64,000 bases of DNA from Arenicellales bacterium (GTDB lineage: Bacteria > Pseudomonadota > Gammaproteobacteria > Arenicellales > JAJDZL01). The translations under genes were made by a program, and so were the position numbers. The notes below the pieces were generated by a model. The model made no database searches. It had not been told where the DNA came from and was given only the letters and a program-made list of their open reading frames with translations. The stretch spans positions 1,652,933-1,716,932 of the forward strand of contig CBDCPT010000001.1 of assembly GCA_965220395.1 (NCBI GenBank). Reading direction: 5' to 3'. Shown here in pieces: positions 3,012 to 17,327 of this stretch (position 1 is the first letter of the stretch; every line of letters begins with the position of its first letter).

Positions 3012-3207
3012 GAGCTGATGAATTGAGGCATAGTGCACCACAGCATAGTGTTTAGTTATCCAATCTATAGAAGTGTGTCCATTGGATTGCATCTATAAAG
3101 GCGGACACTACTAGTCTAAATTTTTTTCGTCATGCATTTTCACTGCCGCCTTGGCAATGCGAAATGATGCCTAGGGGAACAGCCAAAGACACAGAAAATA
3201 GTTGAGT

Positions 3208-3836: not shown

Positions 3837-4286
3837 TTCTTTTCCTACAGATTCAGCTTAAATTCGGGGATTCCTTTGAATTTTGCGTAGACCCCTAGTC
3901 ATATCTAACATACATTTTAACGCAACCGGTGACCAGTATGGATGGGAAACCAGAGAATTCGCCGTAGTTTGGTGGAATAGAAAATCGTGTTGCCAATCAC
4001 TGGGCTCTGGCAACGGAAGTTACAACGTTACATCAGTTTTCGGATATCGAACGAACAATTGATTGCTAGAAATGTTGTTATTGAAAATCCGCTCTTGCCG
4101 AAAGAATTTCTTCCGAAAATCGTTGTATTGTATTTTTCATCTCTACTGCATTTAATGCATCAAGCAATACAACACCCCCGTAAATATTTGGGAATTACAT
4201 ACTTGTGTACATTTTTATTCGCATTACCATCAATAATAATGTACAATACTACCATAAATCAATAACACATTTCTAGATTGAAACTT

Positions 4287-5234
4287 ATGACTAGCAAAGG
4301 AAAGGGACCAGGTAAATACAACCGAAAAGGCATTAGCCTAATCGAAGCCGTTCAAAAGTTCGGAGACGAAGAAACAGCAGAGAAATGGTTTGTAGAACGT
4401 CGCTGGTCAAACGGAATCATCTGTCCAAAGTGCAATAGTGATAAGATCAAACCAAGAAGAACTGCTAGAAAAACTCCTGTGTATCACTGTAATTCCTGTA
4501 AATTCGATTTTACAGTAAAGACTGGAACCATAATGCACGACTCCAAGCTGCCCTTGAGTAAATGGGCTTTGGCATTCTATCTGTATTCAACTAACTTGAA
4601 AGGTGTGTCCAGCATGAAACTGCATCGTGATCTAGGTATCACTCAAAAGTCTGCATGGCACTTGGCACATCGAATCAGAGAGACTTGGAACGATGAAACA
4701 CAGAAACTGTCAGGCACAGTAGAAGTGGATGAAACCTATATGGGTGGTTTGGAAAGGAACAAGCACAACGATAAGAAACTCAAATCAGGTAGGGGTGCAG
4801 TAGGCAAGACTGCCGTTATTGGAGTCAAGGAAAGAGAATCAAAGAAAGTCAAAGCGGAAGTTATAGAAAATACGAAACGACCAACACTTCATGGATTCAT
4901 TGATAAGAACATTGAAGCTGGTTCAGCAGTCTATACGGATGATTTCAAGAGTTACGAAAAACTTGATGGGTATGAACACAGTACCGTAAAACACAGCGTA
5001 GGACAATACGTAGACGAACAAATCCATATCAATGGCATGGAGTCGTTCTGGTCTATGCTGAAACGGGCACATAAGGGAACTTACCATAAAATGTCAAAGA
5101 AACACCTAACTAGGTATTTACAGGAATTTGCTGGCAGGCACAATATCCGTGAACAGGATACCATCAACCAGATGCAACATATCGTTGCTAGTATGATTGG
5201 GAAGAGATTGAGATATTCAGAACTAGTGAAGTGA
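4287..5234 (+). CDS. IS1595-family (ISXO2-like) transposase, apparently intact
   Basis: N-terminal zinc ribbon (CPKCNS...YHCNSCKFDF), then LKGVSSMKLHRDLGITQKSAWHLAHRIR and VEVDETYMGG, with a DDE-type C-terminal half. ATG 4287 aligns with the start of the second copy. Confidence 0.9.
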   Translation: MTSKGKGPGKYNRKGISLIEAVQKFGDEETAEKWFVERRWSNGIICPKCNSDKIKPRRTARKTPVYHCNSCKFDFTVKTGTIMHDSKLPLSKWALAFYLYSTNLKGVSSMKLHRDLGITQKSAWHLAHRIRETWNDETQKLSGTVEVDETYMGGLERNKHNDKKLKSGRGAVGKTAVIGVKERESKKVKAEVIENTKRPTLHGFIDKNIEAGSAVYTDDFKSYEKLDGYEHSTVKHSVGQYVDEQIHINGMESFWSMLKRAHKGTYHKMSKKHLTRYLQEFAGRHNIREQDTINQMQHIVASMIGKRLRYSELVK

Positions 5235-5636
5235 ATGGAGGTCTACATAAAGCTAAATGGGCATTCTGATGCTGGTAAGAAACCAGCTTGGCAGGCTGCA
5301 TCGATAATCAGTGCAAACTCAACAATCATTCATACCATAAACACGGCTATACCGATTCTAAGAATATAGTCAATGGTTTTATAGAGGTTACTTTTCCTTT
5401 TCATAATCTATCACCTTTCCGTCACATGCCAGCACGCCAGAATAAATAATCTAGCACGACATTAAAGTAAGGAAAAAGGATAAAGAAAATGATGAAAAAA
5501 AGTATCAACGAGATTATTTTCACCCATTTAGGGTATCCTGGATTGTCCAAATTCAGAACTCGTGACATAGTCAGGATTGATATGCGACAATTGGCCTTTC
5601 GTAGACCATTCTCAAATCAGTTCCGGGGTAAATTGT

Positions 5637-5936
5637 TCACTGTAGAGTCGCACACTCGCATAGATCATGCAACGCTTTATTGAAGCGTGGCTGAGCCATG
5701 CAGTGAAAGCGTACCACCAGTCGTTTGCGTTGTCTACACGGCAGCAGGCCAATCGCCATGCGCTGCCCATAATCATCGGATTCAAGATACGACAGCATCA
5801 CGCCACTGGCGTTGTGAATCGCCACGCGGCCGTTTTCGCATACCTTGGCGCAGCGCTCGTTGATGAATTCGGCATGTTCCGGGAGGAAGTTCAGGCACGA
5901 TTGAAGCATGGCATAGGTTCGGCTTTGGAGAGACAA
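5637..5936 (-). CDS. Hypothetical protein or gene fragment in a locally GC-rich patch; function unknown
   Basis: 99-aa ORF with protein-like composition (FLPEHAEFINERCAKV...). An overlapping opposite-strand ORF looks less protein-like. No family was recognised. Confidence 0.3.
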   Translation of the reverse strand: MSLQSRTYAMLQSCLNFLPEHAEFINERCAKVCENGRVAIHNASGVMLSYLESDDYGQRMAIGLLPCRQRKRLVVRFHCMAQPRFNKALHDLCECATLQ

Positions 5937-14145: not shown

Positions 14146-14284
14146 ACGGCAACTGCAATTCCGCCACAACTGAAAAATGGGCTTGACTCCAAGCGGTTGA
14201 AGGATTGTCAATGCGCCGGCTTCATTCAAAATTTGGGAATTATATACAATAGTCACAAAACCCTGCCGAATCCGCCTATAATCC

Positions 14285-14316
14285 AAAAAGTGAAGGGGAG
14301 TTATTCACTCCCCTTC
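14285..14316 (-). terminator. Rho-independent terminator-like hairpin between the IS end and the tRNA
   Basis: A 9-bp perfect stem GAAGGGGAG/CTCCCCTTC (14292-14316) with a 7-nt loop. On the minus strand it is followed by CTTTTTGG. Confidence 0.5.
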
Positions 14317-14325
14317 GATAATATT

Positions 14326-14419
14326 GGGCTTGTAGCGGAACGGTATACGCAGGACACTCGGAATGTCCCACTTAGTTGCACAAACAACTAGGTTGTGGGT
14401 TCGAATCCCACCAAGCCTA
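14326..14419 (+). tRNA. Type-II (long variable arm) tRNA with anticodon CGG (Pro codon CCG). Leu-like D arm, A73, no encoded CCA.
   Basis: Manual fold. Acceptor GGGCTTG/CAAGCCT with G1-U72. D arm GCG-GAACGGTATA-CGC. Anticodon arm GGACA-CTCGGAA-TGTCC. 26-nt variable region with an 8-bp stem. T arm GTGGG-TTCGAAT-CCCAC. Discriminator A. Confidence 0.75.
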
Positions 14420-14504
14420 CACCCATTCCGTCATACCGACAAGAAAGACGGACAGTCCAACATTAAACGGTTTCTTGTGTTACAGAATTTTAACACAAGG
14501 ATAT

Positions 14505-14657
14505 TCATTTCTGCGTATTGACGACAACAGGTTGGACTGCTGCTTTTGCAAGTTGCTCAGGTGTAGTCGGGATGTGTATTTTTTCTCTCAATTCAGAGCG
14601 GGACGGCTGGTAAGATTTCGGCTTGACCTTCACAACCGAATCTTTTGAGTGTTTCAT
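14505..14657 (-). CDS. Small basic protein (50 aa) at the distal end of IS element 2
   Basis: ATG 14657 is preceded by GGAG. Sequence MKHSKDSVVKVKPKSYQPSRSELREKIHIPTTPEQLAKAAV.... It occupies the same relative position as 6878-7024 in element 1. Confidence 0.45.
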   Translation of the reverse strand: MKHSKDSVVKVKPKSYQPSRSELREKIHIPTTPEQLAKAAVQPVVVNTQK

Positions 14658-14726
14658 ATTGCTAATCTCCAATTTAGTTGTTGTCGTTGGATTATACAAA
14701 AATAGACAAATATAGTAGAATTCTTA

Positions 14727-14839
14727 TTGCAAACATTTTGAAATCCCCGTAGGTCGGGTTACTTGCCGAATATAACAGCCGTCAAGGTGAATAGGCAAGG
14801 ATTTCTTTTTTTCAAGATATTTGCAACTGCCCGGCACCC
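14727..14839 (-). repeat. Conserved ~110-bp internal module of the IS1595 cargo elements (copy 2)
   Basis: The reverse complement is near-identical to 6094-6205. The inverted arms are TTGCAAACATTTTGAAA (14727-14743) and TTTCAAGATATTTGCAA (14810-14826). Confidence 0.85.
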
Positions 14840-14874
14840 TTTTTACCGAGTCGCAACAACTTGAAGAGAAATCT

Positions 14875-15315
14875 ATGAAGTGCCTGATTATTTTATGCTT
14901 TGTCGGTTTGGTGGCGTTACTGCCACATGTAACTCTCGCCCAGTTTTTTGTGGAAGTCACACCTGAAGAATATGAACAAATGTCGGAGGAGGAACAGGAG
15001 ACATATCGATACAATTTCAAGCAGCACTTTTACAGAATGGAAAGGATAAAAACTGAGGAGGAAATGGAGTACTGGACCGAAGAACAAAAGAAGGCTTGGA
15101 AGACGTTTCAACAAGAGTTATATGGAGGACTTACAATTCAAGAATTAGCGTTTGAGATCCAATATGAAATGCTCGAAAGGTGCAGGCGCATACTTCTTAA
15201 AAATCTAATTGCTATTCGGGCAAATGATAAAGCGAAACAGAAGGAGACGATGGACGATTACTTTCTGTATTCTTGCAGTGAAACAATAGATAGAGCCAGT
15301 GCAACAGAGGATTAA
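14875..15315 (+). CDS. Hypothetical secreted acidic protein (IS cargo)
   Basis: Signal-peptide-like MKCLIILCFVGLVALLPHVTLAQ followed by a Glu-rich helical sequence. No family was recognised. Confidence 0.5.
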   Translation: MKCLIILCFVGLVALLPHVTLAQFFVEVTPEEYEQMSEEEQETYRYNFKQHFYRMERIKTEEEMEYWTEEQKKAWKTFQQELYGGLTIQELAFEIQYEMLERCRRILLKNLIAIRANDKAKQKETMDDYFLYSCSETIDRASATED

Positions 15316-15327
15316 GATGCAGGTAAT

Positions 15328-15975
15328 TTATTGCGCTTCTTGGGGGTTCTGTCCTTTGTCCCACAGAGTCGGGTCTTTCGGCTGACTCTTCCCCGGGTAG
15401 TCCAGTAGGATGTACTGTACTTGTTCCCTCAGGCCGTCGTGGTTTATCGTCTTGTAATACTCCTGCAGTCTCATCGCTGCGTCCACCTGTTCCTTCACGA
15501 ACAGTTCCAGTTCCTGCTGTGCTCTCAATTTCTCCAGCAGTTTCGGGCTTTGTTCCCTCATCGTCTCCAGTAACATCTCCCTCATCGTGCTCTCGGTCAT
15601 CCAGAACGCCCCGCAATCTATCGCTTTCGGTTTCTTTTGCTGCTTCTTCATCGGATTTTGGGACAGAAGCTCGTCCAGTTCCGCAAGCCTTCTCTGAAGG
15701 TGGCGCCAATCCTTCAATGTTTGTGCAAGCTCTTCTCTGGAAGGAAAGGGGCGATCCTTTTCAAGACCCATCGCACCCGGAACTGAAAGTACAGTAAATT
15801 CATCGGAGTTGTCAGAAAAACTGAATCCATCCGTATCTCTTATTGAAAATGAGGCCTGTTCAAGTGTTGTTTTGTAGCGTTCCAGTTTGTTCTTAGTGCA
15901 GACGAGGCTATTCTTGATCTCACGGCGCTCTTGCACCATCAAGCCGAGTTCTACTTGTTCTTGGGTTGCGTTCAT
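15328..15975 (-). CDS. Hypothetical coiled-coil protein (IS cargo)
   Basis: 215-aa ORF with heptad-like charged helical segments. It is co-directional with the transposase. No family was recognised. Confidence 0.5.
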   Translation of the reverse strand: MNATQEQVELGLMVQERREIKNSLVCTKNKLERYKTTLEQASFSIRDTDGFSFSDNSDEFTVLSVPGAMGLEKDRPFPSREELAQTLKDWRHLQRRLAELDELLSQNPMKKQQKKPKAIDCGAFWMTESTMREMLLETMREQSPKLLEKLRAQQELELFVKEQVDAAMRLQEYYKTINHDGLREQVQYILLDYPGKSQPKDPTLWDKGQNPQEAQ

Positions 15976-16033
15976 TGAGAAATACCTATCGGAATCATAT
16001 AGGAATGCTGGTTCCCGTTTATAGAGCCAAACT

Positions 16034-17188
16034 TCATTTCACCAGTTCCGAATACTTCAATCGCTTTCCGACCATTCCAGATGCAACACGTTGTAGCTGA
16101 TTGGCTGTATCTTGTTCGCGGATGTTATTCCGTCCAGCAAATTCCTGGACATACCGCCCTAAATGCTTCTTGGACATTTTATGGTATGTGCCTTTGTGCG
16201 CTCGTTTGAGCATTGCCCAGAAACTCTCGATTCCGTTGATATGCGCCTGTTCTTTCACATACTCGCCAACTGAGTGTTTGACCGAATCGTGATCGAAGTC
16301 TGTCAGCTTCTCATAACTCTTGAAGTCGTCTGTATAGACAGTTGAGCCAGGATCAATGTTTTCATCAATGAAGCCGTGCAGTGTCGGACGCTTTGTATTT
16401 TCGATCACTTTTGCCTTGATCTGCTTGGTCTCTCGCTCCTTTGCGCCGATAACAGTAGTCTTTCCAACTCCACCGCGTCCGGCGTTCAGTTTCTTGTCAG
16501 CGTGCTTGTTCTTCTCCAATCCGCCTATATAGTGTCTGCCAGAAAACGTTTAACACATTGATAATAATGATTAATCATGTCATTCTATAAAGTGAAGATT
16601 TTGCTGGTTTGTGGTATTTGGCAACGAAATTCGCCTTTGAACCCGTTAATCCGCCAAAACCGAAATTTCTTCGTTTGAAAATATCGGATGATTGTTCTTT
16701 ATTATCAATGTGATGTAGAGTTTTCTGACGAACACTATATAGGTTTCGTCTACTTCGATTGTGCCATCAAATTTAATGGATTGAGATTCAAAGGTTTTTC
16801 GTAGACGATGAGCCAAGTGCCAAGCTGATTTTTGAGTGATACCCAAATCTCGATGAAGTTTCATACTGGACACACCCTTGAGATTTGTAGTCAACAGGTA
16901 AATTGCAATCGCCCAAACCTGATAGTTCAGATTTGACCCTTCCATTACCGTACCTGTTTTTAGCGAAAACATCTTCCTGTCTTCGCAATTCCTACAGCGA
17001 TGCGTCATCGTTTTGTGTTTGATATTGGACTGCACATTGTCAGAATTGCAATATGGACAATGCGCGCCATCAGGCCATCGGTGTTCTTCGAACCATTGTC
17101 GAGCAACCTCATTGCTCGAAAACTTGTTCATCAGTTCGATTAAAGTGATACCCTTTCGGTGAGATTTGCCTGGGGCTTTTTGAGTCAT
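16034..17188 (-). pseudogene. IS1595-family transposase split by a ~200-bp insertion
   Basis: The N-terminal part (17188 down to ~16743) ends ...IEVDETYI. The C-terminal part resumes GGLEKNKHADKK... (16524 down to 16034). Both halves align with the intact copy at 4287-5234. Confidence 0.9.
16525..16742. mobile_element. MITE-like non-autonomous insertion (about 202 bp plus a duplicated CTATATAG)
   Basis: The ends TGTCTGCCAGAAAAC (16533-16547) and GTTTTCTGACGAACA (16720-16734) are inverted, matching 12/15. CTATATAG occurs at both junctions (16525-16532 and 16735-16742). There is no ORF inside. Confidence 0.75.
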
Positions 17189-17327
17189 CTTTAGTTACCA
17201 TCCATTTTTGAAATTGTGACTAAAGTATAAACTATCAATTAGGTAATGTCAAGGGTTTTGTGACTATTGTATATAATTCCCCAAAATTTATATGGATTTT
17301 CAACTCCTTGGTTTATTCGGATGCTCA

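Follow-up and report, generated by a model that had tools for sequence, protein, structure and literature searches.

An IS1595-family element of an Arenicellales bacterium carries a leucine-type tRNA gene with a proline anticodon, one of a recurrent class linked to IS1595 transposases

Leucine-type tRNAs with non-leucine anticodons, mostly NGG followed by A37, form a recurrent class that travels with transposases of the IS1595 family. One member is encoded at positions 14326–14419 of a 64-kb stretch of DNA from an Arenicellales bacterium (64,000 nucleotides of contig CBDCPT010000001.1, assembly GCA_965220395.1; the whole stretch is called the window in the following). It is a class II tRNA with the proline anticodon CGG, lying between the ends of a 3-kb IS1595-family element. 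This is a real tRNA whose structure is selected as a class, which is mobile and which is linked to IS1595. From its sequence we further infer that the window tRNA is expressed, charged with leucine and used by the ribosome, and we give a rough probability of 55% to the full account, according to which a leucine-charged, proline-decoding tRNA is carried by the transposon and serves it.

The tRNA gene is the only one in the window. ARAGORN, one of the programs that an earlier note on this DNA had named for checking it, calls a tRNA with the anticodon cgg at 14326–14420 on the plus strand, and the Rfam family RF00005 matches 14326–14419 over its full length (model positions 1–71 of 71) with 54.4 bits (E = 6e-9), well above the gathering score of 29. 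The cloverleaf is the minimum-energy fold of the 94 nucleotides (−35.3 kcal/mol, z = −3.4), and none of 200 shuffled sequences was as stable. It comprises an acceptor stem of 7 bp with a G1-U72 pair, a D stem of 3 bp, an anticodon stem of 5 bp with the loop C-U-C-G-G-A-A (CUCGGAA) and a T stem of 5 bp with the loop UUCGAAU. The discriminator base is A73 (the A at 14419) and CCA is not encoded, the next bases being CAC. With 26 nt and a stem-loop of its own, the variable region exceeds the 10 nt of class I and makes this a class II tRNA. The earlier note had described a clean class II cloverleaf with these acceptor, anticodon, T-arm and 3'-end features, and ARAGORN, Rfam and the fold bear it out; the stem of the variable region, given there as 8 bp, has 9 bp including one G-U pair. 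We consider it very probable that this is a functional tRNA gene.

14326–14419, plus strand: class II tRNA with anticodon CGG, A37, A73, G1-U72, a leucine-type D arm and a 26-nt variable region, found by ARAGORN, Rfam and folding; 66.3 bits with R1, the covariance model of the class, to whose training set the window tRNA belonged

The carrier of this gene is an element of 3047 bp (14235–17281) with perfect 30-nt terminal inverted repeats, which occur in the window only at the two ends of the element (0 matches are expected by chance), and with an 8-bp direct repeat on either side. Its boundaries and its transposase region are as follows.

14227–14234, no strand: left target-site duplication CAAAATTT, present as a single copy at the empty sites of loci L007, L011 and L015
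14235–14264, plus strand: left terminal inverted repeat GGGAATTATATACAATAGTCACAAAACCCT, a perfect 30-nt match to the right end
16034–16532, minus strand: C-terminal part of the transposase (DDE_Tnp_IS1595, PF12762)
16533–16734, no strand: 202-bp insertion resembling a miniature inverted-repeat transposable element (MITE), with its own inverted ends and the duplication CTATATAG
16735–17188, minus strand: N-terminal part of the transposase (Zn_ribbon_IS1595, PF12760)
17224–17252, minus strand: near-consensus sigma-70 promoter of the transposase (TTGACA, 17-nt spacer, TATACT; 11 of 12 positions match)
17252–17281, minus strand: right terminal inverted repeat, a 30-nt match to the left end
17282–17289, no strand: right target-site duplication CAAAATTT, matching the left copy

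The element is flanked by genes for a SprT-like protein and for a formaldehyde-activating enzyme (Fae). In ten related genomes these two genes are adjacent, the intergenic DNA aligns over the junction, and a single CAAAATTT is found with no insertion. Because of these empty sites, we conclude that the 3047-bp element inserted with the tRNA already between its ends. The minus-strand open reading frames (ORFs) 16646–17188 and 16034–16519 are two halves of one transposase that contains a zinc ribbon (PF12760, E = 6.3e-8) and a DDE domain (PF12762, E = 6.5e-36) of the IS1595 type; the terminal inverted repeats and the 8-bp target duplication are likewise those of this family. After rejoining, the window transposase is 95% identical over its full length to the metagenomic transposase P0001. 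The MITE-like insert, of which the window holds one copy with an 8-bp duplication of its own, breaks the transposase ORF at the DETYIGG motif, and the intact transposase of an autonomous element is thus lacking; an alignment of the element to locus L001 skips exactly this 202-bp segment. Ends of the type GGGAAyTAT... are common to L001–L003, L152 and L188. The earlier note had placed the tRNA inside a potentially mobile 3-kb IS1595 element, and the inverted repeats, the target duplication, the transposase domains and the ten empty sites agree with it.

For relatives of the window tRNA, one genome per species (185,579 species) and, in addition, viral contigs were scanned for a leucine-type D arm, NGG at positions 34–36, a long variable arm and the T loop. 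The pattern was found at 37 loci in total, 31 in genomes and 6 in viral contigs. The genome loci come from Acidobacteriota, Gemmatimonadota, Chloroflexota, Myxococcota, Binatus, Verrucomicrobiota and Proteobacteria, and many of the relatives belong to the Acidobacteriota. At 29 of the 37 loci the tRNA is well formed: 6–7 of the 7 acceptor positions pair, the discriminator is A73, and in most cases the anticodon stem is complete. Together with the window tRNA these are 30 members, with the anticodons UGG (23), CGG (5) and AGG (2), and A37 is present in 28 of them. Canonical tRNAs with G36 normally have G37; among three sampled leucine tRNAs with an NAG anticodon, two have G37 and one has C37. 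An alignment of 35 members (the window tRNA, 26 of the NGG-selected loci and 8 further members, four of them with other anticodons) has 96.4% of its cells paired, and 20 of the 24 pairs have changed on both sides, which none of 500 shuffles reached; when the 3' partners were slid by 1–3 columns as a control, pairing fell to 40–45%. The scan pattern had prescribed no more than the D arm, the T loop and two bases of the anticodon; the paired changes seen in the acceptor, anticodon and variable stems therefore show independently that a functional tRNA fold has been under selection. Across the class the full set of tertiary and T-loop/D-loop invariants has been kept as well, as has the canonical anticodon loop of 7 nt with U33. 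The same backbone is found with both C34 and U34 in L142 and L155, which are from a single metagenome-assembled genome (MAG), and in L143 and L144, and such pairs look like an isoacceptor set for the CCN codon box. Extended variable arms of 26–45 nt, as in the window, are present in L139, L152, L160, L176, L182 and L190, all six of which ARAGORN misses.

Among the three tRNA-Leu(CAG) genes that stand in tandem in L149 (Kosakonia oryziphila), the one at 4229–4314 is short of a base in the anticodon loop, which is left with 6 nt; its match to the NGG pattern is an accident. In a metagenome scan, 43 of 121 matches belong to a large family of genes resembling tRNAs, which stems mostly from freshwater samples (L017, L022, L041, L044, L062, L079, L082, L084, L085, L094, L119 and about 30 more metagenome loci) and is also found in the viral locus L005. 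Its acceptor, D and T arms are near-constant (AGTCAGGTGGCGGAATGGTAGACGC ... ACAGGTTCGAATCCTGTCCTGACTAC), hypervariable stretches of 45–60 nt replace the anticodon and variable arms, and ARAGORN assigns many odd anticodons or none.

The association with IS1595 was evident from both directions. When the ORFs within 3.5 kb of the 37 NGG-type tRNAs were clustered, the dominant neighbour family was an IS1595 transposase, present at 20 of the 37 loci at a distance of 33–2400 bp; all 15 aligned members (14 from the loci and the rejoined window transposase) match DDE_Tnp_IS1595. An IS1595 gene was found within 3.5 kb of none of 60 canonical leucine tRNAs (Fisher's p = 6e-11), the flanking DNA compared amounting to 233 kb for these controls versus 192 kb for the NGG-type loci. 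The reverse test was blind to the tRNA: 160 IS1595 loci were picked by the transposase alone, in two sets of 80, and searched with R1. The first set, 80 viral-contig loci chosen by transposase similarity, contained 10 leucine-type class II tRNAs with scores of 72–88 bits and the following anticodons.

UGG, proline: 6 of the 10 tRNAs
AGG, proline: 1 of the 10
UGC, alanine: 1 of the 10
GGA, serine: 1 of the 10
UUA, ochre stop: 1 of the 10

The second set consisted of those 80 viral loci whose transposase comes nearest to the window type; it contained one such tRNA, with the anticodon UGC. Taken together, the 160 loci hold 11 leucine-type class II tRNAs, seven with proline, two with alanine, one with serine and one with ochre anticodons, and a leucine anticodon occurs in 0 of the 11. 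The tRNA is located between the element ends also in L188 (26-nt inverted repeats starting GGGAATTAT), where a near-consensus promoter lies directly upstream of it, and in L178 (24-nt repeats). In a neighbour-joining tree the tRNA-bearing transposases are concentrated in one sub-clade (9 of 21 viral-set leaves versus 1 of about 55 elsewhere), which suggests a long co-inheritance with losses. The window transposase falls into the clade neighbouring this tRNA-rich sub-clade; its nearest tRNA-associated relative is that of L152, a gammaproteobacterial MAG (61% identity), whose tRNA has the anticodon CGG, A37 and a 29-nt variable arm. The window tRNA combines all three features of the class, namely a leucine-type body with A73, a non-leucine anticodon accompanied by A37, and an IS1595 transposase no more than a few kb away.

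Two stricter forms of the association were rejected. The tRNA is no fixed part of the exact insertion sequence (IS) lineage of the window, as the four closest transposase loci are without it, 1 of the 80 window-type viral loci carries one, and the association is strongest in the neighbouring sub-clade. Nor was the tRNA found in a constant orientation or place with respect to the transposase or the end of the element: 8 tRNAs are convergent with the transposase, 8 lie on the same strand and 4 are divergent, and L178 differs from L188. A dedicated synthetase gene was not among the recurrent neighbours of the class tRNAs. At two of the loci further tRNA sequences were seen. In L216, a viral contig, the leucine-type class II tRNA with the anticodon UUA, an ochre suppressor (5621–5702, minus strand), is about 700 bp from the IS1595 transposase, and a class I tRNA with the anticodon ACC lies between the two. 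In L152 (100–190, minus strand) an isolated 3' fragment of another tRNA (T arm and 3' acceptor strand), about 60 nt downstream of the tRNA(CGG), looks like the remnant of an integration site.

These data bear on the possibility that the window tRNA is a functionless copy of a leucine tRNA that was picked up by the transposon, mutated in its anticodon and is now decaying. Such a passenger would be in keeping with the inactivated transposase of the window, with tRNA-less nearest relatives of this transposase and with the lack of a second copy of the exact tRNA in the 185,579 species genomes; no identical or near-identical copy turned up, as the combined pattern of D arm and T loop had 0 matches in the genome contigs, plasmids gave no match, and phages gave only short T-arm matches. 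However, the cloverleaf of the window tRNA is perfect, and divergent relatives have kept all stems by compensatory changes. The earlier note had envisaged a leucine tRNA with the anticodon CAG, either one A35G change away or decayed, and had asked whether all homologues carry CAG. The opposite is the case: NGG with A37 recurs among divergent members (28 of 30, as given above), and no IS1595-linked relative has a leucine anticodon. In addition, the window loop has A37 rather than the G37 that accompanies G36, and at least two changes are required to arrive at CUCGGAA from any leucine anticodon loop. We thus regard a decaying passenger as improbable.

Which amino acid the tRNA receives can be predicted from its identity elements. 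The D arm of the window tRNA, GCGGAACGGTATACGC, is one base off the canonical leucine D arm GCGGAACGGTAGACGC, and the resemblance to bacterial tRNA-Leu stated in the earlier note is thereby borne out. When metagenomes were scanned for the pattern of D arm and T loop, the anticodon being left free, mostly canonical leucine tRNAs (CAA, UAA) came up, and their D arm GCGGAAYGGTAGACGC also has a single-base difference from that of the window tRNA. In E. coli the determinants of leucine identity are A73, the Levitt pair A15:U48, G18G19 and A20a, and neither the anticodon nor the variable arm contributes (PMC9976931). All of them are present here (A73, A14/A15, G18G19, an A after U20, and U48 as last base of the variable region); A73 was also found in 60 of 60 sampled canonical leucine tRNAs. 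Only the anticodon, CGG, is neither NAG nor YAA and so not that of a leucine tRNA. Serine, which the earlier note had offered as a second possibility, fits less well. G73 of E. coli tRNA-Ser blocks leucyl-tRNA synthetase (LeuRS) and tyrosyl-tRNA synthetase (TyrRS), and A73 is an antideterminant against seryl-tRNA synthetase (SerRS) in human tRNA-Leu (PMC9976931). Charging of the window tRNA with serine is unlikely because its discriminator is A73 and not G73; the serine tRNAs at the fetched loci end in ...CCG-CCA and have D arms unlike that of the window tRNA.

Proline is another candidate. The bacterial proline determinants are C1-G72, G15-C48, G35, G36, G37 and A73 (PMC9976931). The window tRNA has the NGG anticodon (C34, G35, G36) and A73, and the statement of the earlier note that G35, G36 and A73 are available to prolyl-tRNA synthetase (ProRS) is correct. 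It lacks C1-G72 (G1-U72 instead), G15-C48 (A15-U48), G37 (A37) and, with its 26-nt variable arm, the class I shape. One may assume on this basis a faithful, if oddly shaped, proline tRNA that is charged by ProRS and reads CCG correctly, the leucine-like body perhaps helping it to evade something directed at normal tRNA-Pro, or the gene simply adding decoding capacity. G35, G36 and A73 are indeed strong bacterial proline determinants (PMC9976931), and the conservation of GG at positions 35 and 36, while position 34 is U, C or A, is what a need to decode the entire CCN box would lead one to expect. On the other hand, the other proline determinants of the E. coli type are absent class-wide (the 1:72 pair is G-C or G-U, 15:48 is A:U, and position 37 is A), while all leucine determinants are retained, and IS1595-linked relatives bear alanine, serine and ochre anticodons on the same body. 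Alanyl-tRNA synthetase and SerRS do not read the anticodon, and the relatives with alanine or serine anticodons can for this reason not be faithful. A faithful proline tRNA therefore appears unlikely to us, and we predict that the main identity of the window tRNA is leucine, with possible competition by ProRS. As to the proposal of the earlier note that the tRNA is charged with leucine (or serine) and decodes CCG, its leucine part is favoured over an odd proline tRNA by A73, A15:U48, G18G19 and the leucine-type D arm together with the missing C1-G72, G15-C48 and G37, and the serine part has become unlikely.

Combining these elements, we propose the following course of events. The tRNA would be transcribed from within the end of the transposon, and its transcript would be matured by RNase P and the CCA-adding enzyme. 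Charging would be performed mainly by LeuRS, which reads A73 and the hinge of the D and T loops and ignores the anticodon. EF-Tu could then bring the leucyl-tRNA to CCG codons, whereby a fraction of prolines would become leucine. The most likely role of the product would be that of a dose-dependent mistranslator acting in trans, which is toxic or induces stress and may aid the persistence of the element through addiction or abortive-defence effects or give the host a conditional benefit.

Several points weigh against this account. CCG is the commonest proline codon in the window (37% of the proline codons and 1.6% of all codons in long ORFs), and strong expression of the tRNA should consequently be very harmful; such harm at high expression fits a toxin-like, tightly limited or conditional role and not housekeeping decoding, and a function as housekeeping decoder is unlikely. 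The promoter candidate of the window tRNA appears weak by consensus. G35, G36 and A73 are genuine ProRS determinants, so that proline could account for part or all of the charging, above all in a host whose ProRS goes by the anticodon. The transposase is broken by the MITE-like insert, and the element may be a relic. The tRNA of L152 is located about 800 bp outside its IS, and a tRNA is missing from the four loci whose transposases are nearest in sequence (95% and about 77% identity). Finally, a benefit to the transposon was not found when a need for recoding in the transposase and in the passenger protein ORF215 and a synthetase partner were looked for. A transposase that needs proline-to-leucine recoding was rejected: its five prolines stay proline in 40 homologues, and no alignment column has proline in tRNA-bearing and leucine in tRNA-less members. 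For ORF215 such a need found no support either, as its prolines align with proline or alanine, never with leucine, in the L001 homologue.

The immediate surroundings of the tRNA contain the following candidate signals.

14277–14282, plus strand: weak candidate promoter, consisting of a TATAAT hexamer that precedes the tRNA by 43 nt and of GTCACA, 19 nt further upstream inside the inverted repeat
14292–14316, minus strand: GC-rich hairpin and T run, putative intrinsic terminator for minus-strand transcripts (10 pairs, 6 of them G-C; tail ACTTTTTGGA), 10 nt from the 5' end of the tRNA
14472–14501, plus strand: terminator-like hairpin with T-rich tail, 53 nt downstream of the tRNA; consensus match only

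A promoter scan did not call the TATAAT hexamer at 14277–14282, its spacer being outside 16–18 nt. An opposite-strand terminator lies directly 5' of the tRNA also in L141, L143, L144, L150, L152, L164, L166, L147 and L178. In the window and at about ten other loci the tRNA is thus antisense within the 3' untranslated region (UTR) of a convergent gene, between the last convergent gene and its terminator. The arrangement is clear in about ten loci, yet loose criteria give just 28 versus 17 of 39, and we regard it as suggestive. It could point to a non-translational role for the transposon, the tRNA being an antisense or processing element for the convergent transcript, a structural signal, or charged but kept off the ribosome. 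Besides the 3' UTR position, a precedent speaks for it, since irregular tRNAs that were charged yet unused in translation have been found near toxin-antitoxin and transposon genes (Mukai et al., PMC5389517). However, neither the orientation to the transposase (8/8/4) nor that to the element end (L178 versus L188) is fixed, which argues for a trans-acting product, and a mere antisense or structural element would have no need of the conserved tertiary invariants and of a canonical 7-nt anticodon loop with U33. Such a role does not seem likely to us, and we prefer a tRNA that is charged with leucine and used in translation.

Leucine-charged class II tRNAs with non-leucine anticodons have a precedent in the nev-tRNAs, which derive from tRNA-Leu, are charged only with leucine in vitro and read a non-leucine codon as leucine in a cell-free system (2012, PMC3333845). 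We consider them the closest analogue of the window tRNA, which by its features is likewise a tRNA-Leu-derived class II tRNA with an anticodon of neither leucine nor serine. Nev-tRNAs, however, are eukaryotic, chromosomal and nematode-specific, have mainly the anticodons CCC (Gly) and UAU (Ile) for rare codons and are not known to be linked to mobile elements, whereas the window tRNA is bacterial (its setting comprises Fae and genes of the tetrahydromethanopterin (H4MPT) pathway, in a MAG of gammaproteobacterial type), has a proline anticodon for the most used proline codon and is transposon-borne. The nearest bacterial system are the allo-tRNAs, which also have long variable arms and identity-mismatched anticodons. 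They have an 8/4 or 9/3 geometry of acceptor and T stem and mostly serine identity, and some act in E. coli as missense suppressors (Mukai et al. 2017, PMC5389517). Allo-tRNAs and irregular tRNAs from Acidobacteria and soil metagenomes were noted in the vicinity of toxin-antitoxin genes, one of them overlapping a transposon-related ORF (PMC5389517). The window tRNA and its class differ by the canonical 7/5 geometry and leucine-type elements, and a systematic link to IS1595 transposases is not described in that paper (PMC5389517). A further natural bacterial tRNA whose anticodon and identity are at odds is tRNAProX of Streptomyces, the partner of ProRSx, which was shown to cause mistranslation and has a toxic effect in E. 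coli (Schuntermann et al. 2023, PMC10404621). It is the mirror case, a class I proline body with alanine, threonine or asparagine anticodons that is paired with a dedicated synthetase gene, while no dedicated synthetase was seen among the recurrent neighbours of the present class, and the carrier is a transposon. The carrier itself resembles known IS1595-family elements in its zinc-ribbon and DDE transposase, its inverted repeats starting with GGG, its 8-bp duplication and its variable cargo (methyltransferase-HNH in L002, RosmerTA in L143). That a tRNA gene should be a recurring part of IS1595-family elements has, to our knowledge, not been described. A literature search on IS1595-linked or leucine-type proline-anticodon tRNAs yielded no prior description, with incomplete coverage that leaves priority open to earlier work, and a 2024 review of mistranslating tRNAs mentions neither leucine-type proline-anticodon tRNAs nor carriage by transposons. 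The association of IS1595 with anticodon-swapped leucine-type tRNAs is recurrent and apparently undescribed.

In nature, tRNAs with an anticodon at odds with their amino-acid identity are rare, and they bear on the rigidity of the genetic code and on deliberate mistranslation by cells or selfish elements. If our account is true, the class would be a bacterial counterpart of the nev-tRNAs, but mobile and tied to one transposase family across several phyla and viral contigs, and it would offer synthetic biology a naturally evolved, anticodon-independent suppressor chassis. If the tRNA is charged with leucine, the transfer of a single 3-kb element would alter the recipient's reading of its commonest proline codon. 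Because standard pipelines label such genes 'tRNA-Pro', tRNA inventories and estimates of codon capacity are wrong for the affected genomes.

At some loci the class tRNA adjoins toxin-antitoxin genes. A RosmerTA operon (RmrT-RmrA) followed by the tRNA is present in L143, L142, L151 and L155; in L143 (PADLOC scores 5.5e-46 for RmrT and 2e-118 for RmrA) the tRNA follows the antitoxin gene on its strand with about 39 nt in between, and in L143 and L142 the operon adjoins the IS1595 transposase. A far-reaching reading is that the tRNA is a long-standing, co-inherited part of an IS1595 sub-lineage, a code-bending module that would misread proline codons (alanine, serine or stop codons in sister elements) with leucine and act as an RNA toxin or stress inducer for maintenance of the element or for abortive anti-phage defence beside RosmerTA-like cargo; we put this forward as a tentative and rather doubtful extension. 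Transposase, RmrT, RmrA and the leucine-type proline-anticodon tRNA form a compact block at 1–3056 of L143 and also at 3055–5887 of L142. In two Terriglobia MAGs a gene for an NYN-domain protein (PIN-like nuclease) adjoins a leucine-type tRNA(UGG) (L137, 4838–5557; L156, 7061–7651), with no IS1595 gene at either locus.

Between the tRNA and the transposase the element contains three passenger ORFs, none of which has a family match in Pfam or PADLOC.

14505–14699, minus strand: small ORF of 64 aa, nearest to the tRNA among the minus-strand ORFs; L002 and L004, both loci without a tRNA, share its C-terminal 35 aa in conserved form
14821–15315, plus strand: ORF of 164 aa whose N terminus resembles a signal peptide; without a match in Pfam or PADLOC
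15328–15975, minus strand: ORF215, 215 aa; sub-threshold Pfam match only, no PADLOC match

In L002 the homologue of the 64-aa ORF sits just within the right inverted repeat, and since this locus has no tRNA, the segment of about 240 bp with hairpin and tRNA is extra DNA at the element end. The 5' region of the 164-aa ORF resembles DNA near the IS1595 relative in L003. The first 105 aa of ORF215 are 71% identical to an ORF downstream of the 95%-identical transposase in L001, and 7 of its 10 proline codons are CCG. Relatives bear other cargo, such as the methyltransferase-HNH gene in L002, and the IS1595 group of the window is on this account a carrier of cargo. A short-read contig of another run, L334 (Logan ERR13605531), is 100% identical to window positions 14751–16169; it ends within the transposase and just upstream of the 164-aa ORF, as would be the case for an element whose outer parts occur more than once in the sample.

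Elsewhere in the window, a match to group II intron domains D1–D4 was found at 1778–1920 on the minus strand (Rfam RF02003, 77.6 bits). An ORF of 446 aa at 111–1451 lies downstream on the same strand and possibly represents the intron-encoded protein.

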